A stretch of 64,000 nucleotides of DNA from Patescibacteria group bacterium (GCA_041671325.1 JBAZBR010000002.1:9978-73977), one strand, 5' to 3'. Positions 27,396 through 61,489 are shown, counted from the stretch's first letter. Notes: generated from the letters alone by a model not told the origin. Numbers and translations are program-made.

Positions 27396-27497
27396 GAGAG
27401 GAGCCCCCGGCCGCGGGGGCAGGTGAGGTTGGCTAATAAACTTACTCATTTTTTTCAGAGTACCCTCACCCCAAACCCTCTCCCAGAGGGAGAGGGG
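27381..27497. repeat. solo GC-rich palindromic repeat cluster (MITE-like)
   Basis: Contains ctctcctatataggagagg, gcccccggccgcgggggc, aggtgaggttgg, ccctcacccc and ccctctcccagagggagaggggg. Confidence 0.6.
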
Positions 27498-27515
27498 GAA
27501 GAAAAGCCGCCTTAT

Positions 27516-32215: not shown

Positions 32216-32532
32216 ATATATTTTATTCCCTCTCCCTCTGTCCAGGGCTGATTTTGTTTTTCTAATCGTAATATTTTTGGCTAACCTCCCCCAAACCCCC
32301 TCCTTGGTAAGGAGGGGAAGGCTGGTTCTTAAACTCCTCCCCTTGCCAAGGGGAGGGTTTGGGTGGGGTCACAATTCTCGCGATAACTGAGGAAATTCCG
32401 ATTACGTAAATAGAACCACAATTTCAATTCATGGGGGTTCAGTAATTTCCTTTGTTTCCTGGCAAGAGGAGTAATTTTTTTCATGCTTGCTAACCTCACC
32501 CTCAATCCCTCTCCTTTATAGGAGAGGGAGGG
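32216..32532. repeat. cluster of related GC-rich palindromes between lemA and htpX
   Basis: Contains ccccctccttggtaaggagggg, cctccccttgccaaggggagg, ggtgggg and cctcaccctcaatccctctcctttataggagagggaggg. Confidence 0.55.
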
Positions 32533-48571: not shown

Positions 48572-48653
48572 GTCTATTGTCATTCCGACCGAGTCTTTAT
48601 TATAAAAAGACGAACGGTAATCCTCAAATTAATGAGAAGATAGTGCTAACGAA

Positions 48654-49380
48654 TCCTCTCCTCACAGAAGAGGATGCCGGAGGCAGGAGGGGTTTGTGGT
48701 AAATATGCAAGAAATTAGCATAAAAAGAGCCAGGCAATTACGAAAAAAATTAACACCATCAGAAGTAAAAATGTGGTCATTATTGCGGAATAAGCGATTT
48801 CTTAATTATAAATTTTACCGTCAGTTTCCTGTGGGACCATATATTACAGATTTTTGCTGTCGGAGCAGGAAGCTAATAATAGAAATTGACGGGGGTGGCC
48901 ATGCCATTCAGAAACAGAGTATAAAAGACGAATATAGAAATAAATATTTAGTTAAATGCGGATTTCGCGTGATGAGAATCTGGTCCAATGAGCTGTTTAG
49001 TAACATTGACGGGGTAATGGAAGGGGTTTTAATAGAATTGCAAAAACAATAAATCTATTTGCCTTTGATCATTCCCCTCACCCGGCCTACGGCCACCCTC
49101 TCCCAGAGGGAGAGGGAGATAAAGAACGGTTCCTCTCCTCCGCCAGAGGCGGACAGGCAGAAGGAGAGGGGGTAGTTGAATAGTCCTCTCCTCACAGGAG
49201 AGGATGCCGGAGGCAGGAGAGGTTCATGGTTATTATATAAGAAGCCATTATTAAGTAAGACAGACAATTATTATAAGTTCAATAGAATTAGAAAAAAACA
49301 ACAGACTTTCTTGATTTTCAAACACCTCCCTCACCCGGCCTACGGCTACCCTCTCCCGCCAGGGGAGAGGGAGGAATAGG
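48654..49380 (+). mobile_element. DUF559 element 1: a DUF559 gene preceded by a palindromic 5' module and followed by a cluster of GC-rich palindromes. The unit is bracketed by 51-bp imperfect direct repeats (48654-48704 and 49184-49234).
   Basis: Direct repeats tcctctcctcacag[a/g]agaggatgccggaggcaggag[g/a]gg... Inverted motif pair ggtgagg/cctcacc and cctctcc/ggagagg at both ends. Confidence 0.5.
48705..49052 (+). CDS. DUF559 domain protein (Vsr-like PD-(D/E)xK endonuclease fold), copy 1
   Basis: Conserved (Y/F)DFCC...IE(I/V)DGG(G/Q)H...(I/F)W(S/N)N(E/D) pattern shared with the copies at 53121 and 61073. Confidence 0.75.
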   Translation: MQEISIKRARQLRKKLTPSEVKMWSLLRNKRFLNYKFYRQFPVGPYITDFCCRSRKLIIEIDGGGHAIQKQSIKDEYRNKYLVKCGFRVMRIWSNELFSNIDGVMEGVLIELQKQ

Positions 49381-49611
49381 TAAAATACTAGTCAAAAACC
49401 AAAAAATCTGCTATACTAATTACATATCCTTGTCGTGGCTGGCGGGCCCACCAATGCATTCTAAAGTGCTTCGGTGGGTGAATCCCTTAATTGGGACTTG
49501 TCCTCCAAAGCCCTTAATTGGGCAAAGGAGGGGATGGGTGATTCAGTACTGATCACTGATCCCCAACAAAACCCGCTTTCCTCGCTTAACATTGAAGGGA
49601 GGTGACAGATA
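49381..49611 (+). promoter_or_regulatory. long structured 5' leader upstream of the major pilin gene, containing several hairpins and a duplicated cccttaattggg motif
   Basis: No ORF. Hairpins cccacc...ggtggg, ggac-tt-gtcc and gggga...tcccc. Possible -10 tatact at 49418-49423. Strong RBS at the 3' end. Confidence 0.3.
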
Positions 49612-50121
49612 ATGACAAAAAGAAAAGGTTTTACTTTAATTGAATTGTTGGTGGTTATTGCCATCATCGGTATTCTGTCAGCCGTGGGTTTGATCGCGCT
49701 TAATGGCGCTCGAGAAAAAGCCCGTGACTCACAGAGAAAGAGCGATTTGGGCCAATTGAGAACCGGTTTGGCTTTGTATTATGATACTTATAATAATTTT
49801 CCAACAGCTGCAACAGCGATAGCGGCCGATTATGTTAACGGTGCAGGACTCGCGCTTGATGCGGGATTGGTTGCTACAGACCAGAAATTTATTTCAAAAT
49901 TACCGAACATGCCAAGCACTTCAGATACTGGCACAGCACGCCAATATATGTACCAAACCTGCGGTGTGACTGCTGCAACCGACTATATACTTTACGCTGG
50001 CTTGGAAAGACCTAAGGATACTGGAGCTTATTGGACATTAAGCTATAGCCAAGGCGTTGCTTGTGAAGCAACTTCTTTTAGTTGTGCAGTAGGCGCTGCC
50101 TCCACTGTAACTTGTTTGTAA
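49612..50121 (+). CDS. pilA: type IV pilin (major pilin candidate), prepilin leader MTKRKG|[16 protein letters not shown]
   Basis: Class III signal. Strong RBS AAGGGAGGTG. C-terminal Cys pair. Confidence 0.8.
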
Positions 50122-50224
50122 TCTGTTAATATAGCTAATATAACAATCAAAAAGGGCCATTTAGGCTCTTTTTGATTTAATAGCCAGATTTCCCAAATAG
50201 AATAATTTATTATAATCTTAAGTA

Positions 50225-50713
50225 ATGAAAAAGAGTACGAATCAGAATTCGGGCTTCACCCTAATAGAATTATTAATAGTGATTGCTATTATCGGTATTT
50301 TAACGGCAATTGGTTTAATTGTTTTAAGCAATAGCCGTGAACGAGCCAGAGACATTAAACGCAAAACGGATTTAAATAGCGTCAAATTGGGTTTGGAGTT
50401 GTATTTTGACAGCTTTAATGCTTACCCCTCTCAAGACACTTTTTTGGGTTTTAGTAATGCAACCGGGGCTGGAAATTTGGTTTACGATTCATTAGTTGGC
50501 AACGCAAAATTTATTAGTAGCTTGCCACAAACACCTTTAGCCGGCGAATTGTATTATTATCGGTCATGCGTGCCTGCAGGCCAAACTGGCTATACAGATT
50601 ACACACTCTATTCGCGCTTGGAGCAACCCACAGTTCCAGGGAATTTTTGGATAATTAGCAAGAGTAAAGCCACTAGCCAGGAAGTAAATTCAGTTAATTG
50701 TCCCCAAACTTAG
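50225..50713 (+). CDS. type IV pilin paralogue (MKKSTNQNSG|[16 protein letters not shown])
   Basis: Class III signal peptide. Conserved alpha1 region similar to the 49612 gene. Confidence 0.8.
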   Translation: MKKSTNQNSGFTLIELLIVIAIIGILTAIGLIVLSNSRERARDIKRKTDLNSVKLGLELYFDSFNAYPSQDTFLGFSNATGAGNLVYDSLVGNAKFISSLPQTPLAGELYYYRSCVPAGQTGYTDYTLYSRLEQPTVPGNFWIISKSKATSQEVNSVNCPQT

Positions 50714-50718
50714 AGAAT

Positions 50719-52446
50719 ATGAAAGTTAAAAGAGAGGCGGTTTTGCCGATTGTTCTAGGCTTTGCGTTTTTTGTGACCAACACTTTTGCTGGCGACTCGA
50801 CGCCGTGGGTGGAAGGGTTTTTGGGAATCCTGACAATTCTTTTATTGCTTTTTAGCCGTCAAAATCTTGGTTTTGGTCAGGACTGGTTCTCTCCTTGGCG
50901 GTGGTTTTTAATTTTAATTGTATTTTTTTCTCTAACCGTGCCTTTCGCCGGTGACAAATATCAAGCCTTGAGAACCTGGATATATTGGTTCATTTCCGCT
51001 GTTTTTTTCTTAAGTGCCTGGTCAATAGACCGGCAATACCGGAAAAAAATGTTGTTAATCATGGTTTGGATTGCGGGAGCCGGCAGCTTATGGGCGATTG
51101 TCAATTTTATAAGCGTGCCCGGTTTAGATAGAGCCGGGGGCTTTTTTAAAAATGCCAATGCCTTAGGGGGTTACTGCGTATTGACCCTGCCTTTGGCTAT
51201 TGCCTTGATATTTGAAACAAAGCGATTGACTAGAATAAGCATTTTGATTTCTTCTGTGAGCATTGCTATTTCTTTAATTTTAAGTTTTTCGGTTACGGGA
51301 TTTGTAGCATTGGTAGGGGTATTAATCTTTGTTCTTGTTATTTGGCGAAAAAACATTAAAAGAAAATGGTTTTTACTTACGGGGGGGGTAATTATTGGCT
51401 TAATCGTTGTGGGCGTTGGCATACGTTTTTTTCAAACCCATTCTTTTAAAACGGCGGTTCGATTAGATAAGATAATTTCCCAAACGCATTTTAAGTCCAG
51501 TTTTACGCAACGTTGGCAATTTAACGCCGTTGCATTTGCTATGTTTAAAAAACATCCAATCGTTGGGATTGGTTTGGGTAATTATCAGCAAGCGTTTTCT
51601 CAGTACGCAAATTCGCGCTTGGAACAGCCACGCTATGTTCACAACGCCTATTTAGAGATTTTTACTGAAACCGGAATATTGGGAGGGTTAGCATTTTTAA
51701 TCATTATAATTTCATTAGCAACTGCGACTGTGCGGACTTACCAAAAATCCGAAATTGATAAAATTTTAATTTTTGGAGCTGGTATGGGCTTGCTGGCTTC
51801 AGCTTTGAATGCATTTGTTGATTTTGGCTGGCATTTTCCTGGAATCTGGGTCGGTTTTTGGATTATTTCCGGTTTAGTTTTATTGCCTGTACAAAATAAG
51901 GCAACACCGTTAAAGTCTGGTTTAATTGCTAGTTTATTTATTATTTTAGGAGGCTTGGTTCTTATCCGGGGCCTGGGTGTTGTGGCCAGTTATACCTATT
52001 TTGCCAGAGCCGAACGTTTGGTTGAGCAAGGTGAAGACCAACAAGCCATTCCGAATTTTCAAAAAGGGTTAAAATATGATCCAGATCCCGTGAGAATGAC
52101 AAACTTGGCAACCTCATTATGGTTGAGACATAACTCTCAAGCCGATGCTTTGATAAGAGCTGAAGAACAAGTTAATCAAGCCTTGAAGTGGTCAAAAATA
52201 AACTACACAACGTATTTGGTTCAGGCGCGTATAGCTTTAGCTAATAAAGATTATGCAAAAACCCGCATTAGTTATGAAAAAATGCTGGAGATTGACCGCC
52301 ATTTTCATCCTGACGCAACCGCGGAATTCGTTAATTTTTTACGCTTTCAAAAAGATTTCACAAAAGCCGACGCGATTGTTAAAGAGGCCGAAAAAGCTTA
52401 TAAAGATATTCTAAAACCAGGCGAGAGCTTGTTTAAGCGGCTGTAA
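50719..52446 (+). CDS. O-antigen ligase (Wzy_C)-like polytopic membrane protein with C-terminal TPR region. Putative pilin O-glycosyltransferase.
   Basis: About 10 TM helices with a large loop. TPR-like C-terminus. Immediately downstream of pilin genes. Start taken at MKVKRE (the ORF track starts at 50698). Confidence 0.55.
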   Translation: MKVKREAVLPIVLGFAFFVTNTFAGDSTPWVEGFLGILTILLLLFSRQNLGFGQDWFSPWRWFLILIVFFSLTVPFAGDKYQALRTWIYWFISAVFFLSAWSIDRQYRKKMLLIMVWIAGAGSLWAIVNFISVPGLDRAGGFFKNANALGGYCVLTLPLAIALIFETKRLTRISILISSVSIAISLILSFSVTGFVALVGVLIFVLVIWRKNIKRKWFLLTGGVIIGLIVVGVGIRFFQTHSFKTAVRLDKIISQTHFKSSFTQRWQFNAVAFAMFKKHPIVGIGLGNYQQAFSQYANSRLEQPRYVHNAYLEIFTETGILGGLAFLIIIISLATATVRTYQKSEIDKILIFGAGMGLLASALNAFVDFGWHFPGIWVGFWIISGLVLLPVQNKATPLKSGLIASLFIILGGLVLIRGLGVVASYTYFARAERLVEQGEDQQAIPNFQKGLKYDPDPVRMTNLATSLWLRHNSQADALIRAEEQVNQALKWSKINYTTYLVQARIALANKDYAKTRISYEKMLEIDRHFHPDATAEFVNFLRFQKDFTKADAIVKEAEKAYKDILKPGESLFKRL

Positions 52447-52489
52447 ATAATAATTAGTCAAAGTCAAGTTTATATAATATAATTACTTT

Positions 52490-52903
52490 ATGATGAAAAA
52501 AGGTATTGGCATGATCGGTATTGTTTTAATTAGCTTAGCCTTTTTGCTGGTCATCTTTTTTGGTTTAAGGATTATTGGTGCCGAAAGGGCGAAAACTAGG
52601 GATGCCCAAAGGGTGGCTGATATGGCCAGAATCCAAGTCGGGTTTATGGCGCTTTTCAATCGCACTGCCAGCTATGCCCAGGCTGCGCAGAATGGCTGTG
52701 ATGCGGTCGGTAGTCCGGTTCGGGTGTGTAACTTGGCCCAGGATTTTCCAAGCGTAAAGAATTTTAAAGACCCCAAAGGCACAGAATATTTGGTTTCTAA
52801 AGTCCCGGACGCCACCACTTACGAAATAACTTTTTCTTTAGAAGTTGGCGCCACGGGTTTGGCAAAAGGCAAACATACCCTAACCCCGGCGGGAATAAAA
52901 TAA
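52490..52903 (+). CDS. pilin-like protein with N-terminal hydrophobic helix but no canonical G|FTLIE prepilin cleavage motif
   Basis: Post-helix region ERAKTRDAQRVADMARIQ parallels [17 protein letters not shown] of the true pilins. Cys pair near the middle. Confidence 0.45.
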   Translation: MMKKGIGMIGIVLISLAFLLVIFFGLRIIGAERAKTRDAQRVADMARIQVGFMALFNRTASYAQAAQNGCDAVGSPVRVCNLAQDFPSVKNFKDPKGTEYLVSKVPDATTYEITFSLEVGATGLAKGKHTLTPAGIK

Positions 52904-53039
52904 AATTTTTGAAAAGCAAGATTGCCGCGCTTCCTTGTAAGAGCGAGGTCGCTCGCAATGACCGATCTTTAATCAACCGTCTTTGCGAGTCCCGCAGCCG
53001 CGGCAGGGACGGGAAAGGAGGGAGAAAGTAAGGCAATGG

Positions 53040-53505
53040 TTATATTTATCCTCCTCTCCGCCTTTTAGGGGGAGAGGATGTCCCGAGCAAAGTCGAGGGA
53101 CAGGTGAGGTGGTAAGTATTATGAAACTGAAACCATTAACCATAAAAGCAAAGAGGCTTAGGCAAAGGCAAACTCCGCAAGAAGTAAAATTATGGTCAAG
53201 ACTTAAAAACAGACAATGCTCTGGCTATAAATTTAGGCGGCAAGTACATCTAGGCAAGTATATTGTTGATTTCTATTGTCCAGAGAAAAAATTTATTGTT
53301 GAAGTTGATGGGGGTCAGCATAGTCATGAACGATTTTCTAAGCGTGATTCATTTAGGAGTAATTATCTGAAAAACCAAGGATGCAAAGTTATCCGATTTT
53401 GGAACAATGATATTGATTCAAATTTAGAAGGTGTTTATCAAGTAATTCTTGATTTTCTAAGTTCCCCCTCACCTCTATCTCCTCTCCCGCGAGAGGAGAG
53501 GAGGA
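53040..53505 (+). mobile_element. DUF559 element 2, with a 5' palindromic module (53040-53120) and a 3' palindromic module (53464-53505)
   Basis: Same architecture as element 1. ggacaggtgaggtgg 5' and ccctcacc...ctcctctcccgcgagaggagagg 3'. Confidence 0.5.
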
Positions 53506-53516
53506 ATGAAAGGTAA
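53121..53516 (+). CDS. DUF559 domain protein, copy 2
   Basis: Start at ATG 53121 with AGGTGAGGTGG SD-like sequence. Conserved DUF559 motifs. Confidence 0.75.
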   Translation: MKLKPLTIKAKRLRQRQTPQEVKLWSRLKNRQCSGYKFRRQVHLGKYIVDFYCPEKKFIVEVDGGQHSHERFSKRDSFRSNYLKNQGCKVIRFWNNDIDSNLEGVYQVILDFLSSPSPLSPLPREERRNER

Positions 53517-53535
53517 AGTTTAATTAAAATAAAAA

Positions 53536-54303
53536 ATGAACATAATTGCTTACATATTTATTTTTCTCCTCGGCCTCTGCATTGGCAGTTTTTTAAATGT
53601 GGTGATTTTGCGCTTGCCCAAGAAAAAGAAATTTTTGAAATTAAACCAAAGGTCAAAATGTCCAAAGTGCCGGCACGCTTTGCGTTTTTTGGATTTGGTT
53701 CCGCTTTTTAGTTTTCTATTTCTGAAATTCCGCTGCCGATATTGCCACAAAAAAATCAGCTGGCAATATCCTTTGGTGGAATTTTTAACCGCGCTGTTTT
53801 TTGCCTTAATTTTTTGGCAATACGGTTTGACTTGGGTAGCATTGATTGGCTTTATTGGCGCAGGGTTTTTAATGGCTTTAGCTTTTATTGACGGAAAATT
53901 CCAAATTGTCCCAGACAGCATAAGCCTGCCAGGAATAATTATAATTTTAGTATTGCAGCTTTTGACCAATTTTAAAGATTGGCAAAGCTTGCTTCTTGGC
54001 TTGCTACTTGGCTCAACCTGGTTTTTACTGCAGTGGGTGGTTTCCAAAGGCAAATGGGTGGGTAGCGGCGATATCCGCATTGGTGCTTTATTAGGAGTAT
54101 TCTTGGGTTTCTGGGGTACTGCCTTGGCGCTTTTCGCTTCCTATTTTATGGGCAGCCTCTGGGCAATATATTTGCTTTCCAGAGGCAAAGCCAAGTTAAA
54201 AAGCAAGATCCCCTTTGGCGTGTTTTTGGGGATTTTTGGCATTTTAGCCTTTATTTTTGGGCCTGAAGTGGTATCCTGGTATAAGGGGATTATCGGTTTG
54301 TAA
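53536..54303 (+). CDS. pilD: prepilin peptidase PilD (A24 family)
   Basis: N-terminal CxxC...CxxC zinc module. Multiple TM. Conserved Asp-containing motifs. Confidence 0.85.
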   Translation: MNIIAYIFIFLLGLCIGSFLNVVILRLPKKKKFLKLNQRSKCPKCRHALRFLDLVPLFSFLFLKFRCRYCHKKISWQYPLVEFLTALFFALIFWQYGLTWVALIGFIGAGFLMALAFIDGKFQIVPDSISLPGIIIILVLQLLTNFKDWQSLLLGLLLGSTWFLLQWVVSKGKWVGSGDIRIGALLGVFLGFWGTALALFASYFMGSLWAIYLLSRGKAKLKSKIPFGVFLGIFGILAFIFGPEVVSWYKGIIGL

Positions 54304-54340
54304 ATCCAGCACCACTTTTCAACAAAACATTAAAAAATTC

Positions 54341-55243
54341 ATGGCTAAATTGAAAAAAGGATTTTCAATCCTGGAAATATTAGTGACTATAGGCATCACT
54401 GCGCTCCTAATGGGCGTGGTCATTGGCAATTACCGCCGGGGCGGCGATGACAGTATTTTGGAAAAAGAAATCAACTTGCTTATGACCAGAGTTAGGCTGA
54501 CCCAGGAACAGACTGCCGGCGGGACAACCGGAAAATATTGCGAAAATCCAAATTATGGCAAAACTTGCAGTGTAGATTCGGATTGTCCTTCATCAACAAC
54601 TTGTTTGGAGGCTGATACGCCAAAAGGCGGTTATGCAATAGTTTTTAATTGTGACCCGAGTTATCAGTGGGGTTTGGATTATCCAAAAATGGACGTAATG
54701 GATGATGTAACCGAAACCAATACTACCCCTTATTTTATTTTTGGCGATAGGCTTTCCTGTAATTCTAATTGTTTTAATAATTTAAATTTTGATTGGTCTT
54801 ATATAGACTCTGATGGCCTGATAACTCTGATAAATTCTTCTCCTATGATAAACCCTCCTACCATAGGAGACACCCTGGTTAATACTTATGAGCTGGATAA
54901 TAAATTAGTGTTTAAAGATTTGCAGATAGTTTCCTCTAATTTAGAAATGTATTCTTGTAAATCAATTAATTTGTCAGATTTGAGAGGGAGGCCGGTTCCA
55001 GACCACGGTGTTGTTCCCGCGGAGTATCCCTTACAAGCGACAATCAGGTTTAAACCGCCAGACGGCAGGCAATTGGAAATTACTGATGGCGTTAGGACAC
55101 AAACACCTGGCGGAAATAATTGGCAGAAAGTAAGCGTAATGTTCGGCTTAAAAGACCGGAATACGGATTGCAAAATCGTGTCAATTAGCAAAGACGGATT
55201 TATTACTAAAGATAATGATCCGAATTGCAGTTTTGAGAGTTAA
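54341..55243 (+). CDS. minor pilin-like protein (MAKLKKG|FSILEILVTIGITAL)
   Basis: Class III signal at ATG 54341. The ORF track starts at 54257, upstream of the likely start. Confidence 0.75.
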   Translation: MAKLKKGFSILEILVTIGITALLMGVVIGNYRRGGDDSILEKEINLLMTRVRLTQEQTAGGTTGKYCENPNYGKTCSVDSDCPSSTTCLEADTPKGGYAIVFNCDPSYQWGLDYPKMDVMDDVTETNTTPYFIFGDRLSCNSNCFNNLNFDWSYIDSDGLITLINSSPMINPPTIGDTLVNTYELDNKLVFKDLQIVSSNLEMYSCKSINLSDLRGRPVPDHGVVPAEYPLQATIRFKPPDGRQLEITDGVRTQTPGGNNWQKVSVMFGLKDRNTDCKIVSISKDGFITKDNDPNCSFES

Positions 55244-55298
55244 TTTCTAAAAGTTAAAAAATAATTAATAAACAAAGAAATAGACAATTAAAGAGTTT

Positions 55299-55405
55299 AT
55301 CCAGCACCACTTTTCAATAATACGCTATAAATATCACTATGAATTTTGACCAGAAAAAAATCAATAACCAGCACGAAAGACCTTTTTTGAAAAGTGGTGC
55401 TGGAT
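55299..55405. repeat. perfect 19-bp inverted repeat (atccagcaccacttttcaa ... ttgaaaagtggtgctggat) flanking the start codon and leader-coding region of the minor pilin gene
   Basis: Exact reverse complements at 55299-55317 and 55387-55405. Further copies at 54304-54322, 57847-57863 and 57955-57974/57978-57997. Confidence 0.7.
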
Positions 55406-56343
55406 TTACCTTGATTGAAACCCTGGTAGCGATGGGGATTATGCTGGCTTTATTGTCCGTGATTTTGGCGAATTACCGGCGGGGCAATGATGACAGCGTC
55501 TTAAACCGGGAAACCGCAATGTTAATGTCTAATATCAGGTTAGCACAGGAAGAAACCGCGGCTGGCCAAATTTTACGTTTTTGCACTACTAATATTGGGC
55601 AAACCTGTAAAACCGATTCAGATTGTCCGACGGGCGATACCTGTAATCCAACCCAAGAAACTCCTAAAGGTGGATATGGGATTGTTTTAGGTTGCAAGAA
55701 TGGTACTGTTGTGGGTACGACGTTGCCGTGGATTGAGCATGGGGTGGATATCAGTAACCCGAATAATCCAAATGCTTATTTTTTATACGGTGATAACCTG
55801 AGCTGTGTTGGCTCAACAGCGTACAATTCTTGCTTTCCGATGAATCCTTTACTTTATAACCCCAATGGTCCGACTTCATATGACAGGAGAATTGGCAGCT
55901 GGCAAACTGGTGAGAATTATGGTGATACTTTGGAAAAAGAAGTAGTATTGAATGATAAAGTTAAGATTAAAGATTTTAAATTAACCAGGGGAACTGATTC
56001 AAACCTGACTTATTATACATGCGATGTATCGAATACTGGTCTTAGCGCAGATCATTATTCCCCTTGGAGCCTGTCCGGTGCTATTATTCCAGGAATTAAT
56101 ACTGTTGTTCCAGCAAATTATCCTTTGCAATTATATATCAATTTTTCTCCGCCTACTGGCAGACAAACATACATCTCTGATAATATTGAATATTTTTTGC
56201 CTGGCGGACCTAACTTGACAGACATCTGGCTTAAAGCGGAAATTATGCTGGGGGTAAAAAACCGTGATACTGACTGCCAGGTTGTTACTGTTACTAAAGA
56301 GGGCATGATCAGCCGGTCAGTCGATGCGGATTGTAAATTTTAG
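55339..56343 (+). CDS. minor pilin-like protein with long leader (MNFDQKKINNQHERPFLKSGAG|FTLIETLVAMGIM)
   Basis: Class III signal. Possible alternative TTG start at 55387 giving the leader MKSGAG. Confidence 0.75.
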   Translation: MNFDQKKINNQHERPFLKSGAGFTLIETLVAMGIMLALLSVILANYRRGNDDSVLNRETAMLMSNIRLAQEETAAGQILRFCTTNIGQTCKTDSDCPTGDTCNPTQETPKGGYGIVLGCKNGTVVGTTLPWIEHGVDISNPNNPNAYFLYGDNLSCVGSTAYNSCFPMNPLLYNPNGPTSYDRRIGSWQTGENYGDTLEKEVVLNDKVKIKDFKLTRGTDSNLTYYTCDVSNTGLSADHYSPWSLSGAIIPGINTVVPANYPLQLYINFSPPTGRQTYISDNIEYFLPGGPNLTDIWLKAEIMLGVKNRDTDCQVVTVTKEGMISRSVDADCKF

Positions 56344-56355
56344 GTTTTAATTAAA

Positions 56356-57456
56356 ATGAATTTTTTTGGCTTAAAAAAGAAAACCCATAAAGGCCAGACC
56401 CTCTTAGAAGCCATCATCGCCATTGGCGTGATTATGACTGGCGTAATTGGCTCTTTGGTTTTGGTTACCACGACCATAAAGCTTGGCCGGACAAACCAAG
56501 ACCGGGTCATTGCCCAAAATCTGGCCAGGGAAGGCATGGAATTGGTTTATAATCTCAGGAATTCCGCAACCCTAATGGGCATTGAATCGCCCTATATAAG
56601 CTGGGATTATTTTTTATACAAAAAAAAATCAAAAGCGGTCTTAGGCTATAAGGAATATTATGATATTGCCACTGGAGAAGGGACAGAATCTAGTCCTTGT
56701 GTTAACGCGCCAGATGTTAGTTCTAATGATAATAAACTGAATGACTGTGATGCAATAGTTATTGAAAAATACTTATTTGAACCACCAAATATTTTGCCTC
56801 CGATTTGTGAAGATTATCAATATCCCGTCCCAGGTACACCGCCCTATACAACAACTCCTTGTGATTTTAATGGCGATGACAAATTGAACATTACTGATGT
56901 GGTTTGGCTAATTAATTATATATATAGAAATTCTTACATTATGGCCTATGGCGGTTATCCGCAAATTTTGACAACTGTTGCCGGGAGCATTAAGCCTTAT
57001 GAAAAAATAGATTTTAATCAAGACAACAGCACTTTATTTTTTATCGGCACTGATCCGCTAGCAAATATTCCCGCAGCTTGGGAAGCCCCAACGGTTGATG
57101 ATCCTAACCTGATTGAAAAGAGAAGCCGGGTTTATAAATATAACAATACTTACACTCAAAATGTCCTTCCAGATACTACCCCTGGATTGGAAAAGACAAA
57201 ATTTTACCGCATGATAACCCTGCAATCTGTTTGCCGCGGAACACACAATGGTACTCCTGACACCACTGTTTTACTGCCAGTAGACTCAGTTCTCAATTGC
57301 TACGACTACGTGAGAACACAGGTTTGGAATGTTGCTGACGCTAACACCGTAAAAAAAGTCGGGATTTTAGCAAATGTTGAAGTTCGCTGGTCAACAGCCT
57401 TGAGTCCAACCAATGTCAAATACCAAGAATTTATTTACGATTGGATTAATTTTTAA
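56356..57456 (+). CDS. PilV-like minor pilin (leader ...KKTHKG|QTLLEAIIAIGV) carrying a dockerin-like Ca-binding repeat (DFNGDDKLNITDVVWLINYIY)
   Basis: PilV-type N-terminus. Dockerin type-I-like repeat. Confidence 0.6.
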   Translation: MNFFGLKKKTHKGQTLLEAIIAIGVIMTGVIGSLVLVTTTIKLGRTNQDRVIAQNLAREGMELVYNLRNSATLMGIESPYISWDYFLYKKKSKAVLGYKEYYDIATGEGTESSPCVNAPDVSSNDNKLNDCDAIVIEKYLFEPPNILPPICEDYQYPVPGTPPYTTTPCDFNGDDKLNITDVVWLINYIYRNSYIMAYGGYPQILTTVAGSIKPYEKIDFNQDNSTLFFIGTDPLANIPAAWEAPTVDDPNLIEKRSRVYKYNNTYTQNVLPDTTPGLEKTKFYRMITLQSVCRGTHNGTPDTTVLLPVDSVLNCYDYVRTQVWNVADANTVKKVGILANVEVRWSTALSPTNVKYQEFIYDWINF

Positions 57457-57494
57457 TCCCGCGCCAATTCATTTGAACGCTTAAACTGCCAACC

Positions 57495-57575
57495 ATGAAT
57501 TTTTACCGGCAAAAAATTGACAATCAACAAAAAAGACTTTCATTGAAAAGTGGTACGGGATTAATAAATGACTAG
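57495..57575 (+). pseudogene. decayed copy of the minor-pilin 5' module (MNFYRQKIDNQQKRLSLKSGTGLIND*), truncated after the leader
   Basis: Nucleotide similarity to 55339-55410 and 57886-57960. Stops after 26 codons. Confidence 0.45.
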
Positions 57576-57885
57576 ATTTGAAAAATGTATTTTGTCTATT
57601 TATTACGAAGCAAGAAAAATAAAGCAATTTACATTGGCTCCACCAATAATTTAAAATTGAGACTACGACAGCACAATAAAGGACTAGTGTTTTCAACAAA
57701 AAGATATATGCCTTGGGAATTAGTATATTATGAAGCATATAATAACGAAGGCCAAGCCCGTTTGCGGGAAAAGAGGCTTAAATACAATGGTAATGCTATT
57801 AGAGAATTAAAAAGAAGAGTTGGGTTGTGATAATTACATGGGTTTACCCAGCACCACTTTCCATAAAAATAATTAATAATAATTA
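57576..57885 (+). mobile_element. GIY-YIG nuclease gene inserted between tandem copies of the pilin 5' module
   Basis: Flanked by homologous leader-module copies at 57495-57575 and 57886-57960. Confidence 0.45.
57585..57830 (+). CDS. stand-alone GIY-YIG nuclease family protein (81 aa), paralogue of the 20599 gene
   Basis: MYFVYLLRSKKNKAIYIGSTNNLKLRLRQHN GIY-YIG motif. Confidence 0.7.
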   Translation: MYFVYLLRSKKNKAIYIGSTNNLKLRLRQHNKGLVFSTKRYMPWELVYYEAYNNEGQARLREKRLKYNGNAIRELKRRVGL

Positions 57886-57978
57886 ATGAGATTTTACTTG
57901 AAAAATATCCAAAATCACAAAAAAAGACTTTTTTTGAAAAAAAAGGTGGGATTTATCCAGCACCACTTTTCATTCCGA

Positions 57979-58743
57979 ATGAAAAGTGGTGCTGGATTCA
58001 CGCTTATTGAGGTCATTATTGCCATGGCGGTTTTTTCCGTTGCTATGGTTTTGGCAACCGCCACTTTTGTCTCTTTTGTCCAAAGCCAAAGAAGGACCAT
58101 TACCCAGCAGGAAATGCAAAATGATGCCCGCTCAGCCATTGAGGAAATCGCCCAGGTCTTAAGGGAAGGCGTGGTTGATTATGCTTATTATTCTACCAAT
58201 TTTACAGAACCAATTGAAAAAACCATACTTTTTGATTCTCTTGATGGCACGGGAAAAAAATGTTTGGCAATCCGGAGCGCTTTGAATGAATATTATTATT
58301 ATAAATTAGACGGCGGGGTAATAAAAAAATATTTTTCAGCTAGCCCTATCAGCACTTCTTGCGTTGGCGGCACGAACTGGTCGGTTGTAACACCAGAAAA
58401 TTTAACCATAACCAATTTCACTTTTTTAATCACCCCTTCCCAAAACCCATTTCAGGGTAAATCTTACCAAGCATGCGGAACCCCGGGGGCTCCGACTGCC
58501 TGCACCGAATGGGGGACTTATTGCAATGAAGATGGTAGTATCGATTGTGCTTACCAAAAAGGGACTTCCTGTTATTGCGTACCAAAAGTTTATGGTGATT
58601 TAATCCCTTTGCACCCAAAAGTCACTTTCAGTTTGACCGTATCCAGGAAAGCCAACCAGACCACGCTTTCAGAAACCTACCAAACCACCATAACCAGCCG
58701 GGTCTATAAGAATTTTGACCTTTTAAACCGCTATGCGCCTTAA
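57979..58743 (+). CDS. PilW-like minor pilin (MKSGAG|FTLIEVIIAMAVF). An alternative upstream start at 57886 would give a 41-aa leader.
   Basis: Class III signal. The start codon lies in the stem of a perfect 20-bp hairpin. Confidence 0.7.
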   Translation: MKSGAGFTLIEVIIAMAVFSVAMVLATATFVSFVQSQRRTITQQEMQNDARSAIEEIAQVLREGVVDYAYYSTNFTEPIEKTILFDSLDGTGKKCLAIRSALNEYYYYKLDGGVIKKYFSASPISTSCVGGTNWSVVTPENLTITNFTFLITPSQNPFQGKSYQACGTPGAPTACTEWGTYCNEDGSIDCAYQKGTSCYCVPKVYGDLIPLHPKVTFSLTVSRKANQTTLSETYQTTITSRVYKNFDLLNRYAP

Positions 58744-60019
58744 TATTTCCCACAGAAAAAAAGCTAAGAAATCAGCCAATCAAGAAAATAAAGGCATAAC
58801 TCTGCTAGTTTCTTTATTGGTTATGTCAGTGGTGGTGGCGATTGGCATTACCATCAGCACGGTAGTGGTCTCCCAGGTGAAAATTAATTTAGTCGTTACC
58901 CAAGGCCACCAGAATTATTATATCGCCGAATCAGGCATTGAAAACGCTTTAGAGACGTTAAAAGAAAAAAAAGGCGGCACGATTGCAGAAGCCTTAACAG
59001 CCATACAAAGTTTAGTTTTTCCGTCTGGCAGCGATATAACCGCCGATTTAACAAAAAGCGATAGTCTTTCCGGCGGCCAGACCGTACCCACAGAACTTAA
59101 GGAAAATAGCAGTGCGTTTATTGATTTATATGATGTAGACGCAAGTTTGTCCTCGATTGGGATAGATCCTCCAGTTTTTTGCGTTTATGGCGAGTCTACT
59201 GATGAAGAAGCTCCTTATAAAGATAACGAGGTTATGGAAGTTACTTGGATTGCCTGGTCAGAAAATTTGGAGGTTTCCGCGCCGCAAAAAGCCTTAGTCG
59301 CCCATTCAAATTTCAGTGATCCGTCTGGCTGTGCTCCTTATGGCGGTCAGGCAATAGATTTAACTTATTTTTTTTCGGCATTTACGTATACTGGGTCATT
59401 AGCTGGTTTTAGGTTTAAGGTGACTGCCTTAAAACCACCCGGTCCACCAACTCCAGGCGATGGGGATATCAAGAATTTTAAAGTTTATACGTCTCCAACA
59501 GATTTAAGCACGCAAATCCAGGTCAAATCCGTCAGTAATTACGCCGGCCAAACCCAGGCTTTGGTTGCCACTTTCCCTTGGTCAACCCCCCTTTCTTCGT
59601 TTTATGATTTTGTGATTTTTAGTGAAGAGGATTTAAAAAAAGAGTTATCTGTTTCCGTAGACCAAACAATTAAGAAATTTGGGCCATATCCGGCAGTGAG
59701 TAGTCCCATTAGTGACGTGGCTTTTGTTGGCTGCGACAGCTCGCCATGCCAATATTATATTCGTTTGTTAAGAGCTGACGCTAAAACTTGGGGTGAGTTT
59801 GATATTACTACCAGTGGTGCCGCATCTGGCACAGAGCCACAAACAATTATAGTTACATCGAATATTACTAGCTGTATTGTTAGAAATTATTATACTTTTA
59901 GTACTGCTTCTGGAAACACTATTACTTTTAGCGCTATCCCCGCAGATGGTCCAACACAATACGAGCTTATTTCCAAAGCCACTTTTATAGATCCTAGCGA
60001 AACATATTGCCCAACCTAG
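58733..60019 (+). CDS. PilX-like pilus assembly/minor pilin protein
   Basis: PilX_N-like hydrophobic N-terminus KGITLLVSLLVMSVVVAIG. 10-nt overlap with the upstream gene. Confidence 0.5.
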   Translation: MRLNISHRKKAKKSANQENKGITLLVSLLVMSVVVAIGITISTVVVSQVKINLVVTQGHQNYYIAESGIENALETLKEKKGGTIAEALTAIQSLVFPSGSDITADLTKSDSLSGGQTVPTELKENSSAFIDLYDVDASLSSIGIDPPVFCVYGESTDEEAPYKDNEVMEVTWIAWSENLEVSAPQKALVAHSNFSDPSGCAPYGGQAIDLTYFFSAFTYTGSLAGFRFKVTALKPPGPPTPGDGDIKNFKVYTSPTDLSTQIQVKSVSNYAGQTQALVATFPWSTPLSSFYDFVIFSEEDLKKELSVSVDQTIKKFGPYPAVSSPISDVAFVGCDSSPCQYYIRLLRADAKTWGEFDITTSGAASGTEPQTIIVTSNITSCIVRNYYTFSTASGNTITFSAIPADGPTQYELISKATFIDPSETYCPT

Positions 60020-60024
60020 CAAAT

Positions 60025-60924
60025 TTAATTTTCAAGCGGATAAATAAAATCCGTGGAAATGGTTTTGCCTTGCACCAGGACTTTTAGGGCATGGTATTTG
60101 GGCTTGAATAAGCCGCCCAAAGCGCTCTGGGGCAATTGGCCGCCGCCGCCAGTGACTATGACTGGTACGCTTTTAGTCACCTTGCCTTGGCTGTCTTTGG
60201 CCAAAGCCATAGTAAAGTCAAAGTAATTATGGATATGCCCGGTAAAAATTTGGTTAGGCGGGTATTTGGCCAAAATCGCCAGGAACTTAGCGTTGCTGGC
60301 AGTTGAGGTTTTGGTTTCGTCGTCGCCTAGAATCGAAGCTAAAGGATAATTAAAAGGCCGGTGATAAGCCAAAACCAGCACTGAATTTTTTAATTTATTT
60401 TTAGCGTAATCCGCCAGGTCATTTTCCAGCCAGGCAAGTTCGGTTTCCTCAAAGCCGATTTTACGGTTGGAATTATCCAGCAAAACCAGGTGGATATTTT
60501 CTATATCAACTGCTTGCCATCTTGGCCCGACTTGCCCTGTCCAAATGCCCCCATTTTGGTCTTCGGCCAAATCGTGGTTGCCAGGAATATAATAGATGGG
60601 AATTTTTAAGCCCAAATTGGCATGAAGTTTTTTTAAACTTTCGAATTCTGCCTGGGTGCCATTTTCCGTGGCATCACCCACATGCAACAAGAATTTTATT
60701 TCGGGATCTTTGGCAATTTGTCCAATCAGGCCTGTGTATATGGAATTTTCACCTTCATTATCGCCAATGACGGCAAAAGCCAAAGGTTTTTCTTTGGTTT
60801 TTAAGAGTTGAAAATTAGTTAAATCCTGGAAATTAACCTTAATGGGTTTCCAGAGGTTGAAGAGCATTAGCATAGCCAAGCTAACAATCAACACCAAGCC
60901 TGAAATGCGGTATACTGGTTTCAT
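60025..60924 (-). CDS. calcineurin-like metallophosphoesterase, membrane-anchored or secreted
   Basis: GDNEG, HVGD, GNHD and GHIH metal-binding motifs. Start taken at ATG 60924; the track uses TTG at 60942. Confidence 0.75.
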   Translation of the reverse strand: MKPVYRISGLVLIVSLAMLMLFNLWKPIKVNFQDLTNFQLLKTKEKPLAFAVIGDNEGENSIYTGLIGQIAKDPEIKFLLHVGDATENGTQAEFESLKKLHANLGLKIPIYYIPGNHDLAEDQNGGIWTGQVGPRWQAVDIENIHLVLLDNSNRKIGFEETELAWLENDLADYAKNKLKNSVLVLAYHRPFNYPLASILGDDETKTSTASNAKFLAILAKYPPNQIFTGHIHNYFDFTMALAKDSQGKVTKSVPVIVTGGGGQLPQSALGGLFKPKYHALKVLVQGKTISTDFIYPLEN

Positions 60925-61002
60925 AGTAATGGAAGCATACAAGAAAATTTATTTATTTTCCAGAAATTATAGAATATAATTATTCGGAATTTATACTAAT
61001 TA

Positions 61003-61450
61003 TTCCCTCTCCTCTGGCAGGAGAGGGAATCCCGCCAAATGGCGGGATGGGTGAGGAGGAAAACAATTATACATGAGAAAAATATTAACCAATAGAGCAA
61101 GGGTATTTCGAAAAAAACAAACTTCATCAGAGGCTATTTTGTGGCAAAATTTAAGAAATAAGAAACTATTAGGATATAAATTTTATCGGCAATACCCAAT
61201 TAATAACTATATTGTTGATTTTTGTTGTCCGATTAAACGGTTAATCATTGAAGTTGATGGTGGCGGTCATAATTATGACGAACAAAAAGCTAAAGATGAG
61301 ACCCGTGATATTTTTTTAAAAAAACAAAAATTTTATGTTTTAAGGTTTTGGAGTAACGATATTCATAAAAATTTATCCGGAGTAATGGAGACAATTTTTG
61401 ATTTTTTATCCCCCCTCTCCTTTGGTTCCTCCCCCGCATAAGGGGGGAGG
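61003..61450 (+). mobile_element. DUF559 element 3, with a 5' palindromic module (61003-61059) and a 3' palindromic module (61411-61450)
   Basis: ccctctcctctggcaggagaggg, cccgccaaatggcggg and gggtgaggagg at the 5' end. ccccctctcc...cccccgcataaggggggagg at the 3' end. Confidence 0.5.
61073..61441 (+). CDS. DUF559 domain protein, copy 3
   Basis: Conserved DUF559 motifs (YIVDFCCP, IEVDGGGH, RFWSND). Confidence 0.75.
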   Translation: MRKILTNRARVFRKKQTSSEAILWQNLRNKKLLGYKFYRQYPINNYIVDFCCPIKRLIIEVDGGGHNYDEQKAKDETRDIFLKKQKFYVLRFWSNDIHKNLSGVMETIFDFLSPLSFGSSPA

Positions 61451-61489
61451 AAAAATTGAATATCGCTTTGCCTTAAATAAGGTAGATAA

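Follow-up and report, generated by a model that had tools for sequence, protein, structure and literature searches.

How do small nuclease-type genes come to lie, several times in one locus, between inverted palindromic sequences? We addressed this question in a window of 64,000 nt (the whole stretch of DNA analysed) from a Patescibacteria group bacterium (GCA_041671325.1 JBAZBR010000002.1:9978-73977). An earlier note, written from the sequence alone, had described three diverged DUF559 genes with inverted ends in a type IV pilus locus and proposed a lineage-specific selfish element with gene-less, MITE-like derivatives.

DUF559 genes and their end modules

Three ORFs in the window match PF04480 (DUF559) at E 2e-33 to 4e-37, scoring 115-127 bits where the gathering cutoff is 20.6, and the 41-50% pairwise identity of their products bears out three diverged genes. 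Their matches to NCBIfam PRK09767 (84-98 bits) fall under the equivalog cutoff of 218, and the proteins are therefore members of the DUF559 family rather than YcjD equivalogs. Residues D50, E61, D63, H67, D76 and R92 (gene-2 numbering) are invariant in 39 sequences, the window's three included, and the conserved acidic/His core D...ExDGxxH of the Vsr-like PD-(D/E)xK fold is present in the window proteins. The family profile matches PDB 3HRL (E 4e-36) and the homing endonuclease I-Bth0305I (PDB 3R3P, E 1e-4). For gene 1 and its counterpart in the relative L085, dN/dS is 0.11; this low value, the invariant residues and the structure-profile matches argue that the window gene is functional. The core of the element is thus a predicted nuclease gene of ~110 aa (DUF559; YcjD-family, Vsr-like PD-(D/E)xK). 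A Vsr very-short-patch repair endonuclease was rejected because Pfam gives DUF559, not Vsr, and there is no linkage to a Dcm-type cytosine methyltransferase. A known anti-phage defence system was also rejected, as PADLOC returned weak, domain-level similarity to the nucleases of DpdF, Hhe and mREase_II (E 1e-6 to 5e-8) and the partner genes are absent. The pilus setting was confirmed by T2SSE, T2SSF, N_methyl pilins and an A24 peptidase at the locus, and the neighbours of the DUF559 genes are pilus genes, a phosphoesterase and ligA.

Upstream of each gene lie two hairpins, one with C-rich and G-rich arms (A) and a second, short one (B), followed by a G/T-rich segment (Y'), and downstream these parts recur in reverse-complement order, so that all three genes have the inverted palindromic modules on both sides that had been claimed for them (Table 1). 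The unit spans from outer hairpin edge to outer hairpin edge. Each module runs C-rich arm, loop, G-rich arm, a variable short hairpin or 2-3 nt, and a G/T-rich third segment. Perfect polypyrimidine/polypurine hairpins number 14 in the window vs 0 in 50 composition-preserving shuffles. As single-stranded DNA, most window modules fold with z-scores of -4 to -6.4; the upstream hairpin of gene 1 is imperfect (z -1.4), and the two ends of element 3 differ in subtype (CTCTCC left, CTCCCC right).

Table 1. Positions of DUF559 units, their parts and related copies in the window.
Feature	Position	Strand	Parts or basis
Element 1, intact	48655..49116	+	Pfam match, sequence, folds
Element 1, left module	48655-48692		imperfect hairpin A 48655-48673; hairpin B 48676-48684
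Element 1, Y'	48685-48692		AGGAGGGG
Element 1, DUF559 gene	start 48696 (GTG) or 48705 (ATG), end 49052	+	
Element 1, right module	49074-49116		Y CCCCTCACCC; B' GGCCTACGGCC; hairpin CCCTCTCCC-aga-GGGAGAGGG
Extra CCTCTCC...GGAGAGG hairpin	49132..49169	.	nested hairpin in loop; between element 1 and deleted sibling
Internally deleted gene-1-type copy	49184..49371	+	aligned to element 1 and L085 element; direct repeats D2, D3
Element 2, intact	53050..53516	+	Pfam match, sequence, folds
Element 2, left module	53050-53112		hairpin A 53050-53078; hairpin B 53080-53101
Element 2, Y'	53102-53112		AGGTGAGGTGG
Element 2, DUF559 gene	53121-53516	+	
Element 2, right module	53464-53504		overlaps the gene's last codons
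Element 3, intact	61003..61452	+	Pfam match, sequence, folds
Element 3, left module	61003-61059		hairpin A 61003-61029; hairpin B 61030-61047
Element 3, Y'	61048-61059		TGGGTGAGGAGG
Element 3, DUF559 gene	61073-61441	+	
Element 3, right module	61410-61452		different subtype, CCTCCCCC-loop-GGGGGAGG
Decayed element	32334..32529	-	tblastn E 2e-5, matched by 38 queries
Decayed element, upstream end module (gene orientation)	32506-32529		with Y 32492-32501
Decayed element, downstream end module	32334-32368		
Decayed element, DUF559 N-terminus remnant	32375-32484	-	first ~36 codons, MKKITPLARKQRKLLNPHELKLWFYLRNRNFLSY...
Solo module beside decayed element	32283..32317	.	Y AACCTCCCCC; hairpin CCCCTCCTT-ggt-AAGGAGGGG
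Half-hairpin remnant near solo module	32226-32240		
Miniature gene-less pair	4629..4781	.	left module 4629-4676; 27-nt spacer; right module 4704-4781
Miniature gene-less pair	27379..27498	.	hairpin A 27379-27403; hairpin B 27404-27419; Y' 27421-27432
Right part of the preceding pair			30-nt spacer; Y 27463-27472; hairpin 27476-27498

Read as a mirror image, the third segment repeats the G-rich arm, and an A of the arm may appear in it as A or T. Across loci, the mirror match beats the direct match in 116 cases vs 41. In the window modules at 53052, 61003, 32506, 32297, 49096 and 49349 the mirror rule scores 8/8 to 10/10; Y' of element 2 mirrors its arm exactly, and that of element 3 matches 10/10 as a mirror and 7/10 directly. 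Between arm and third segment, the spacer forms a hairpin whose sequence is unrelated between elements. Spacer hairpins that share no sequence, together with the mirror third segment, indicate that module structure is under selection. The mirror arrangement is the one predicted for an intrastrand purine-motif triplex, and each end, when single-stranded, can form a putative hairpin with a laid-back third strand or, alternatively, a G-quadruplex. The suggestion that the palindromes are terminators found no support, as the right modules are followed by A-rich sequence and none by a T-run; they were also not among the terminator-like sites in 48400-61600, and an intrinsic transcription terminator was rejected.

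Deleted copies, empty sites and junctions

In all, the window has three intact and two decayed units (one truncated, one internally deleted) as well as two miniature gene-less pairs, and its module pairs enclose DUF559 or DUF559 remnants and no other cargo. The copy at 49184-49371 has intact modules at both ends and still has its 3' UTR, but lacks ~270 nt of coding sequence; its first ~90 nt can be aligned to element 1, with the start codon changed from ATG to ATA. The gene-less copies noticed earlier are real pairs (4629-4781 and 27379-27498). The right module of the former carries an inserted GC-rich hairpin, and the latter, as single-stranded DNA, gives a fold made up of hairpins A and B, a Y':Y stem and C (z = -6.4). 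By alignment, at least two of the gene-less or decayed copies are deletion derivatives, and the gene-less forms are non-autonomous derivatives.

Comparison with relatives gave the presence/absence differences that the earlier note had asked for. The gene-2 site lacks DUF559 in L084 (74% LigA identity to the window), and at the gene-3 site this relative has a Y1 transposase with different REPs. In L085 and L086, relatives ~80% identical, the gene-2 intergenic region has a gene-1-type DUF559, placed elsewhere than gene 2, and its product is 79-80% identical to gene 1 and 44% to gene 2. These differences support the proposal that gene and inverted ends form a selfish unit. The deletion derivative and the truncated copy in the window speak for mobility as well, as do in-frame insertions in hsdR, metH, prmA, recO and a methylase gene; those in the first four comprise both whole units and gene-less pairs. 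One conserved hsdR site holds an insertion in three distant taxa. The dS of the gene-1 lineage is 0.97, equal to that of neighbouring genes (0.99), and movement of the element is therefore rare. No identical copies were found at different loci, and exact-protein look-ups gave the native context only, which counts against a selfish reading.

The search for target-site duplications was negative at about 50 junction pairs and at an E. coli filled-vs-empty site, where strains differ in having or lacking a BoxC pair, and the empty sites in relatives contain no recognisable target repeat. The term MITE in its classical DDE sense is therefore unfitting; of the earlier claim, origin by deletion stands for 49184-49371 and 32334-32529. 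A classical DDE TIR transposon or MITE was rejected because, although TIRs are present, there is neither a duplication nor a transposase gene.

DUF559 units across phyla and the BoxC/TMECO repeats

We took 80 loci as best matches to the window proteins. Inverted-copy flanks upstream and downstream (z > 4) were found in 57 of the 77 testable loci, which, having been chosen as best matches, are not a random sample of the DUF559 family. About a quarter have no inverted flanks, and this counts against a selfish reading. The bracket architecture surrounds DUF559 in Chloroflexota, Proteobacteria, Nitrospirota, Verrucomicrobiota, Cyanobacteria, Bacteroidota, Patescibacteria and others, and the end module is of the E. 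coli BoxC/TMECO type; the element is not lineage-specific. The TIRs measure 30-70 bp. Polypyrimidine/polypurine hairpins reach a density of 4.23 per kb up to 200 nt from DUF559, vs 0.09 per kb in the remainder of these loci, a 47-fold enrichment. DUF559 protein similarity correlates with TIR similarity (Mantel r = 0.34, 0/2000 permutations), one TIR type recurs in several phyla, and module type follows protein clade. We interpret this co-variation as inheritance of the unit or as recognition of module by protein. Exceptions to the usual polarity, namely inside-out modules at L059, L072 and a Synechocystis plasmid copy and direct-orientation modules in Neisseria, count against a selfish reading.

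BoxC/TMECO are intrastrand-triplex repeats of E. coli and other bacteria, and triplex formation by the E. coli TMECO has been demonstrated in vitro (Holder et al. 2015, PMC4666352); HPG1/HPG2 form a G4-hairpin-duplex switch (Kaplan et al. 2016, PMC5100583). The window modules share with them a C-rich arm, short loop, G-rich arm, short linker and G/T-rich third segment, as well as the triplex block order and mirror symmetry (G*G:C, A*A:T or T*A:T triads, antiparallel to the second block). Both are intergenic and often in inverted pairs, with presence/absence among strains and pairs that collapse to single hairpins. However, the published E. coli consensus, CCCTCNCCC N3-6 GGGNGAGGG N3 GGGNGAGGG (PMC4666352), fits many high-GC DUF559 loci and not the window modules, whose arms are shorter (7-10 nt, CCTCTCC type) in an AT-richer genome and whose linker is 2-22 nt, often with its own hairpin, rather than N3. 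BoxC/TMECO were described as gene-less, with no mobility function found nearby (PMC4666352, PMC5100583), whereas the window pairs enclose DUF559.

In E. coli, strains of phylogroups A, B1 and C, where ycjD is present, have 13-30 TMECO copies, and phylogroup B2, without ycjD, has 0-2. The correlation speaks for a selfish reading. That it reflects one or two evolutionary events, and that the flanks of ycjD itself are degenerate, counts against one.

Known systems and competing explanations

Among known systems, REP/RAYT and REPINs also place one small nuclease-type gene between inverted palindromic repeats, with many gene-less intergenic doublets, no target-site duplication, a chromosomal rather than plasmid-borne location and long vertical persistence (Bertels and Rainey 2011, PMC3116915). 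As in REPINs, inverted repeats flank the DUF559 gene and gene-less inverted doublets are dispersed intergenically. RAYT, however, belongs to the Y1 HUH transposases (PF01797), which both cut single-stranded DNA and rejoin it, whereas for the Vsr-like PD-(D/E)xK fold of DUF559 no joining activity is known. DUF559 also differs in that one genome carries several diverged copies and in that its ends are triplex-type modules instead of GTAG-type REPs. REP/RAYT proper was rejected, the gene between the repeats being DUF559 and not PF01797. In L084, a true RAYT (Y1_Tnp) with its own REPs, of the GTAGGTG type, occupies exactly the gene-3 site.

The Vsr-like (EDxHD) homing endonuclease I-Bth0305I has a related catalytic domain and a selfish life style (PMC3239194; PDB 3R3P), and the insertions at one conserved hsdR site are a further likeness. 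DUF559 units differ in that they reside in no intron or intein, have no additional DNA-binding domain and end in inverted structured modules, and in that their empty sites lack a target repeat. An intron- or intein-encoded homing endonuclease was rejected, since a search of the units against Rfam matched no family, no intron or intein was detected, and the units are free-standing or plain in-frame insertions. Rickettsia palindromic elements are likewise in-frame palindromic insertions, comparable to those in hsdR, metH, prmA and recO here; to our knowledge they carry no gene, whereas DUF559 units add a nuclease domain of ~110 aa. TnsA of Tn7 (PF08722, PMC3424549) is a restriction-endonuclease-fold, PD-(D/E)xK protein that acts at element ends and cuts the transposon 5' ends, and by symmetry a G-rich module stands at the 5' end of each DUF559-unit strand. 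TnsA works with the DDE transposase TnsB and leaves 5-bp target duplications; DUF559 units have neither partner gene nor duplication.

We think it reasonably probable that the unit is a compact selfish element, made of a DUF559 gene and inverted structured ends, with non-autonomous derivatives and nuclease action at the folded ends. The DUF559 protein would be an active nicking nuclease that recognises and nicks folded ends, whether of its own unit or of gene-less pairs, after which host replication or repair would copy or relocate the unit. This logic would resemble that of REP/RAYT and REPINs, or of a free-standing homing endonuclease. We know of no PD-(D/E)xK nickase that can carry out strand transfer alone, which counts against this reading.

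DUF559 could instead be a housekeeping, structure-specific nuclease of DNA repair that processes the triplex, G-quadruplex or hairpin of BoxC-type repeats genome-wide, with the repeats spreading otherwise (replication slippage, recombination) and the gene autoregulated by its own substrate or repeatedly targeted. Strong purifying selection and a dS like that of neighbouring genes would be equally expected of a host-beneficial gene, and to that extent this long vertical persistence counts against the selfish reading. DUF559 is also rare on plasmids (40/72,556 records) and phages (2/50,697), its closest characterised relative, Vsr, is a repair nickase (PMC3424549), and TMECO loci are instability hot spots that might need repair by the cell (PMC4666352). 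We nevertheless regard a host function as unlikely, as it leaves unexplained why modules form precise, fixed-polarity inverted gene ends in many phyla and follow protein clade across them, why 64 kb of a small Patescibacteria genome holds three diverged paralogues and two decayed copies, why the gene is missing in close relatives and in 38% of complete E. coli genomes, and why insertions lie in frame within metH, prmA and recO.

The modules might also act in RNA. Y' lies 3-13 nt before each window start codon and is Shine-Dalgarno-like (AGGAGGGG, AGGTGAGGTGG, GGTGAGGAGG), and it is complementary to Y, with which it forms a stem in the folded gene-less pair. The 5' module, with Y' as ribosome-binding site, and the 3' module would then pair as a transcript panhandle that holds down translation of a possibly toxic nuclease, directs RNase III to process the insert or insulates the host operon, and gene-less pairs would be stand-alone RNA stability or regulatory hairpins. 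No promoter-like site belonging to the window DUF559 genes was found, and they are therefore probably read through from upstream; as FASTKD4 illustrates, RNA can be a substrate of Vsr-like folds (PMC11879112). A panhandle, however, needs complementarity alone, which leaves the mirror rule for Y' and the self-complementary B hairpins unaccounted for. In high-GC lineages Y' is inside the ORF or far from its start, and the lack of an Rfam match or of a terminator-like right module also speaks against this explanation, which we consider improbable as a replacement for the selfish element; an RNA-level role could be an added layer on it.

Least probable, in our view, is that some unlinked factor, or the host's own processes, mobilise inverted triplex-module pairs, with DUF559 as no more than their most frequently trapped cargo. 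In E. coli, gene-bearing pairs are indeed outnumbered by gene-less pairs and solo modules (23 TMECOs vs one ycjD), L099 has gene-less pairs with no DUF559 within 20 kb, and O157:H7 strains, which lack ycjD, keep 10-11 TMECOs, a point that counts against the selfish reading as well. Trapping is hard to reconcile with window pairs that enclose nothing but DUF559 or its remnants, with a hairpin enrichment specific to DUF559 surroundings and with the co-variation of protein and module, and purifying selection is not expected for trapped cargo.

We found no published link between DUF559 and repeats of the BoxC/TMECO type. The recurrence of the gene-plus-repeat unit across phyla suggests that DUF559 may be their missing gene partner.

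DUF559 genes and their inverted end modules in the window

All three open reading frames match Pfam PF04480 (DUF559) with E-values of 2e-33 to 4e-37, and the encoded proteins share only 41-50% pairwise identity. They occupy the spaces between genes of a type IV pilus locus (T2SSE, T2SSF, N_methyl pilins and A24 prepilin peptidase), with gene 3 flanked by a phosphoesterase gene on one side and ligA on the other; the window LigA has a 100% match under the NCBI name "Patescibacteria group bacterium". Reading of the sequence gave one flank plan common to all three genes, each of which we refer to, together with its end modules, as element 1, 2 or 3. Upstream, hairpin A consists of a CCTCTCC-type arm, a loop and a GGAGAGG-type arm. 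Hairpin B, short and different in sequence from copy to copy, directly abuts it and is followed by a G/T-rich segment Y' (AGGTGAGGTGG-like), with the start codon 3-13 nt further on. Downstream the reverse complement is found, in the order Y (CCCTCACC), B' and hairpin. Perfect polypyrimidine/polypurine hairpins number 14 in the window and 0 in 50 shuffles.

DUF559 genes, gene-less units and degenerate units in the window
Feature	Position	Strand	Remarks
DUF559 gene 1	48696/48705-49052		Pfam PF04480 match
DUF559 gene 2	53121-53516		Pfam PF04480 match
DUF559 gene 3	61073-61441		Pfam PF04480 match
Miniature gene-less unit	4629-4781
Miniature gene-less unit	27379-27498
Internally deleted derivative of element 1 type	49184-49371		Directly after element 1; identified by alignment
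Decayed DUF559 unit	32334-32529	minus	Left-type and right-type modules enclose a remnant

The first ~90 nt of the internally deleted derivative, which include the first codons with ATG changed to ATA, align to element 1, as do its 3′ UTR and right module; ~270 nt of coding sequence have been lost in between. The remnant in the decayed unit is a DUF559 N-terminus, MKKITPLARKQRKLLNPHELKLWFYLRNRNFLSY (tblastn E 2e-5), matched by 38 query proteins. What lies between the modules of any pair in the window is therefore DUF559, as a gene or as a remnant, or else a short spacer. The earlier note had described DUF559 genes between inverted palindromic ends, with gene-less copies elsewhere, which is confirmed, and its proposal of a selfish nuclease unit with deletion derivatives was right in kind, as these two copies illustrate. 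Many DUF559 queries also gave a recurrent weak tblastn match at 1856-1954 on the minus strand (best E 3e-4); it lies antisense inside a 1439-aa ORF (301-4620), and we set it aside as a probably spurious remnant.

The ends have features of a folded single strand. DNA folding predicts hairpins A and B with Y' unpaired in the upstream modules of genes 2 and 3 (z = -4.0 and -4.8, respectively), and A, B, a Y':Y stem and C in the gene-less pair at 27379-27498 (z = -6.4). Y' mirrors the G-rich arm instead of copying it directly, with A answered by A or T. Among arms with an asymmetric purine pattern, the mirror reading was better than the direct one in 116 vs 41 cases; in the window the matches were 10/10 vs 7/10 at 61003, 10/10 vs 8/10 at 32506 and 9/9 vs 7/9 at 32297. 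Long linkers between the G-rich arm and Y' are always self-complementary and unrelated in sequence between elements, a pattern of compensatory variation that keeps Y' adjacent to the G-rich arm. Because of these variable self-complementary linkers and the mirror rule of Y', we infer that the ends are designed to fold as a single strand. An antiparallel purine-motif triplex, made when one strand folds back, follows this kind of mirror symmetry, with G*G:C, A*A:T and T*A:T triads, and the same four G-runs of the module could also form a G-quadruplex.

Residues D50, E61, D63, H67, D76 and R92 of DUF559 are invariant across 39 sequences. The family profile matches PDB 3HRL, an N. gonorrhoeae "endonuclease-like protein" (E 4e-36), and 3R3P, the catalytic domain of the Vsr-like homing endonuclease I-Bth0305I (E 1e-4), sequence matches by which we consider the fold settled. 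The bacterial PF04480 family is very large and its structure has been solved (3HRL), and we know of no role for it; a PADLOC search for defence-system membership returned domain-level matches only. In a N. gonorrhoeae chromosome filed as a PLSDB plasmid (L157), the 3HRL gene is flanked by direct ~120-nt repeats at 60-200 and 660-800. Each contains the module CTCTCTCCC tgt GGGAGAGAG cta GAGAGAGGG, the third block being an exact mirror of the second.

Other inverted repeats are present in the window. A small GIY-YIG nuclease gene (57585-57830; PF01541, E 2e-18) lies within 57541-57863 between inverted 20-nt copies (TGAAAAGTGGTGCTGGATT and its complement), a sequence that codes for the conserved N-terminal pilin motif. 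Related repeats occur at 54301-54321, 55296-55316, 55383-55410, 57952-57972 and 57980-58005, every minor-pilin gene of the locus has its own leader-coding 20-mer upstream in inverted form, and 57492-57562 resembles a duplicated pilin 5′ end. Either a second selfish nuclease that uses another hairpin or a set of regulatory hairpins may account for this locus. Another type of conserved intergenic palindrome (gcaagattgc ... gcaatgac; gtcattcc-type) is found at 52918-52962 and 48568-48620, and is shared with relatives of the window organism at the pilin/peptidase gap (L084, 30-100; L085, about 1060-1110). We take it to resemble the widespread 'GCAATGAC'-type repeats of other bacteria. Finally, a 45-nt inverted repeat (20900-20944 and 23022-23066, 89% complementary) encloses ~2 kb with two more tRNA genes, in addition to the tRNA-Ser(gct) whose end one arm overlaps. 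GC falls to 0.37-0.38 on either side, and the repeat may be a tRNA-associated rearrangement or integration scar.

Spread of the unit across bacteria and inside conserved genes

Searching one genome per species with the three window proteins as an alignment yielded 545 confirmed DUF559 relatives. The loci we compared are the best 80 of these 545 matches, not a random sample of the family. They come from Chloroflexota, Alpha-, Gamma- and Delta-proteobacteria, Nitrospirota, Verrucomicrobiota, Cyanobacteria, Bacteroidota, Elusimicrobiota, Patescibacteria and others. When each upstream flank was compared with the reverse complement of the downstream flank, 57 of the 77 testable loci among these best matches exceeded shuffles (z > 4), showing that the unit is pan-bacterial and not specific to one lineage as the earlier note supposed. 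The aligned ends are 30-70 bp long and follow the A-B-Y' plan of the window. At the same loci, polypyrimidine/polypurine hairpins reach 4.23/kb within 200 nt of DUF559 vs 0.09/kb elsewhere, a 47-fold difference. DUF559 was rare on both plasmids and phages.

The modules come in several dialects, for example CCCTCTCCC/GGGAGAGGG/GGGTGAGGG, CCTTCTCCC/GGGAGAAGG/GGATGAGGG, CCCCCCTTT/AAAGGGGGG/GGGGGGATTT and CCCTCCCC/GGGGAGGG/GGGGTGGGG. End similarity correlates with DUF559 protein similarity (Mantel r = 0.34, 0/2000 permutations), and single dialects occur across several phyla. Together this suggests that the gene and its ends travel and evolve as one unit.

At several loci, whole module-DUF559-module units are in-frame, stop-free insertions in conserved genes: hsdR (L073, L075, L013), metH (L079), prmA (L008), recO (L017) and a large methylase gene (L050). 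In hsdR, two cyanobacteria and one Kryptoniota genome have the insertion at the same site, between YYAVNKAVE and GVIWHTQGSGKS. DUF559 identity tracks HsdR identity among these insertions, so the insertion is old and has been inherited together with the gene; gene-less module pairs also lie in-frame inside hsdR. The metH unit adds 165 residues between residues 399 and 403 of E. coli MetH (1K7Y_A), and the prmA unit adds ~175 residues, with inverted ends that are perfect over 47 nt. That the survivors are in-frame and stop-free suggests filtering of in-gene copies for an open reading frame, which in turn requires either numerous insertion trials or a design tolerant of read-through. In a bolder variant of the mobilisation reading given below, in-gene copies would be removed or bypassed at the RNA level by pairing of the two ends. 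Inspection of the prmA junctions showed that taking out the unit delimited by its terminal inverted repeats does not restore the frame: the unit is 3n+1 long and its removal creates a stop codon, so the junction that preceded the insertion is not recovered in this way.

Site polymorphism among relatives

Comparison with relatives bears out the presence/absence differences sought by the earlier note. In L084 (LigA 74% identical) gene order is kept, and ~70 nt without DUF559 lie at the site of window gene 2. At the gene-3 site, L084 carries a Y1 transposase (PF01797, RAYT-like) between GTAGGTG...CACCTAC REPs (9000-9960), and no triplex-type hairpin was found within its 22 kb. This intergenic spot hosts two unrelated nuclease-plus-palindrome systems, DUF559 in the window and the Y1 transposase in L084; another relative, L083, has a GTAGGTG-type REP just upstream of ligA (1-126).

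L085 and L086, whose flanking genes are ~80% identical to those of the window, carry a DUF559 gene in the gene-2 intergenic region, and its product is 79-80% identical to gene 1 and 44% to gene 2. This gene-1-type copy lies upstream of a conserved intergenic block, and window gene 2 lies downstream of it. Between gene 1 and its L085 counterpart, dN/dS is 0.11 and dS is 0.97, compared to a dS of 0.99 for the neighbouring peptidase gene. The gene-1 lineage dates back to the split of the two genomes, has evolved under purifying selection and sits at a different site in each. In more distant relatives DUF559 is absent within 10 kb, and 507 kb contain 8 triplex-type hairpins. Similarity between sibling copies begins and ends at the outer edges of the terminal hairpins. 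Exact-sequence look-ups for recent movement of genes 1 and 2 returned native context only, in data where contigs often break at repeats.

BoxC/TMECO repeats and the nature of the unit

BoxC/TMECO, the intrastrand-triplex repeats of E. coli, have been catalogued as a repeat family for decades; to our knowledge, nobody has explained their origin and spread. The TMECO consensus is CCCTCNCCC N3-6 GGGNGAGGG N3 GGGNGAGGG, with 23 copies in E. coli K-12, five as inverted pairs, and occurrences in >260 genomes (Holder et al. 2015, PMC4666352). TMECOs form a triplex in vitro and are tied to local genome instability, and mobility functions were never found near them (PMC4666352). The sequences also act as a G-quadruplex/hairpin/duplex switch (Kaplan et al. 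2016, PMC5100583), are identical to the classical BoxC repeats (PMC2267715), and occur as 100 such palindromes in Enterobacter sp. 638 (PMC2869309). The window end module is of this already-known type, and the link to a gene is apparently new: neither DUF559 nor ycjD, its E. coli representative, is mentioned in any of these papers, and we found no report tying DUF559 to flanking repeats in the open-access and bioRxiv literature. A connection between a very large uncharacterised family and a classic unexplained repeat family thus appears to be unreported.

In E. coli, the BoxC pair between hrpB and mrcB is missing in many strains (e.g. MS6198 and NGF1), filled and empty sites differing by a clean ~100 nt, and in SF4-1 the pair has collapsed to a single hairpin. 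No target-site duplication was found at these sites, at ~50 junction pairs or at the window copies. The earlier note had proposed such duplications as a check and classed the gene-less copies as MITE-like, an assignment that in the classical DDE sense fails given their absence and the BoxC/TMECO nature of the ends.

Near ycjD (L149; NC_000913 1350200-1352400), TMECO no. 9 lies ~170 nt downstream and a degenerate hairpin sits at the stop codon; a partial duplication of the ycjD 3′ end is also present just downstream. The gene is accessory (3378/5426 complete E. coli genomes), and strains without it, such as NC101 and O157:H7 (L155, L156), have the eefRABCD efflux operon at the exact position, between sapF and fabI. 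This agrees with published work that assigns ycjD to phylogroups A, B1 and C together with ST69 and ST182, and eef to B2, D, E, F and G (PMC12817139). TMECO counts are 13-30 in A, B1 and C strains (K-12 23, IAI1 29, W 30, REL606 20), 0-2 in B2 (CFT073 2, UTI89 1, S88 2), 10-11 in O157:H7 and O55:H7, and 6-15 in 042, UMN026, IAI39, CE10 and SMS-3-5 (Holder Table S7, PMC4666352). We place the last five strains in phylogroups D and F. TMECO number thus peaks in strains that carry the DUF559 gene and falls almost to zero in B2. We regard the association as suggestive, as one or two evolutionary events lie behind it and O157:H7 is a partial exception.

We consider the DUF559 unit to be probably, though by no means certainly, a selfish element. 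More tentatively, DUF559/YcjD may be the long-missing mobilising enzyme of BoxC/TMECO triplex repeats throughout Bacteria, in which case the units would form a new class of mobile element, minimal in size (~0.45-0.55 kb) and driven by a nuclease. We propose that DUF559 is an active nickase that would recognise the folded ends, a single-stranded hairpin with a third strand, and nick there; host replication or repair would then copy or relocate the unit as well as gene-less pairs. Such an element would move without target duplication, give rise to gene-less pairs resembling REPINs (gene-less REP doublets), and be able to settle in-frame inside essential genes.

Three other explanations rank below both of these readings. 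DUF559 could be a host repair nuclease acting on non-B DNA, which we think unlikely. It is less likely still that the flanks act mainly at the RNA level, a reading compatible with a selfish element; Rfam at gathering thresholds returned three tRNAs only, with chance-level matches around element 1 at E ≤ 1, and the terminator alternative raised by the earlier note gained no support, as consensus sites for a terminator or promoter role were not found. Least probable of all would be a DUF559 that is a mere passenger between ends with which it co-varies.

If the link between DUF559 and BoxC is true, it would supply a function for DUF559 and an origin for the BoxC/TMECO repeats. The REP/RAYT system of palindromic repeats and Y1 HUH transposase would gain a second counterpart that differs in mechanism, and a natural protein that reads non-B DNA structures would become available. 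The idea is directly testable in E. coli K-12, with ycjD and 23 TMECOs, and the in-frame copies in metH, prmA, recO and hsdR bear on gene annotation and on the tolerance of proteins for inserted domains.
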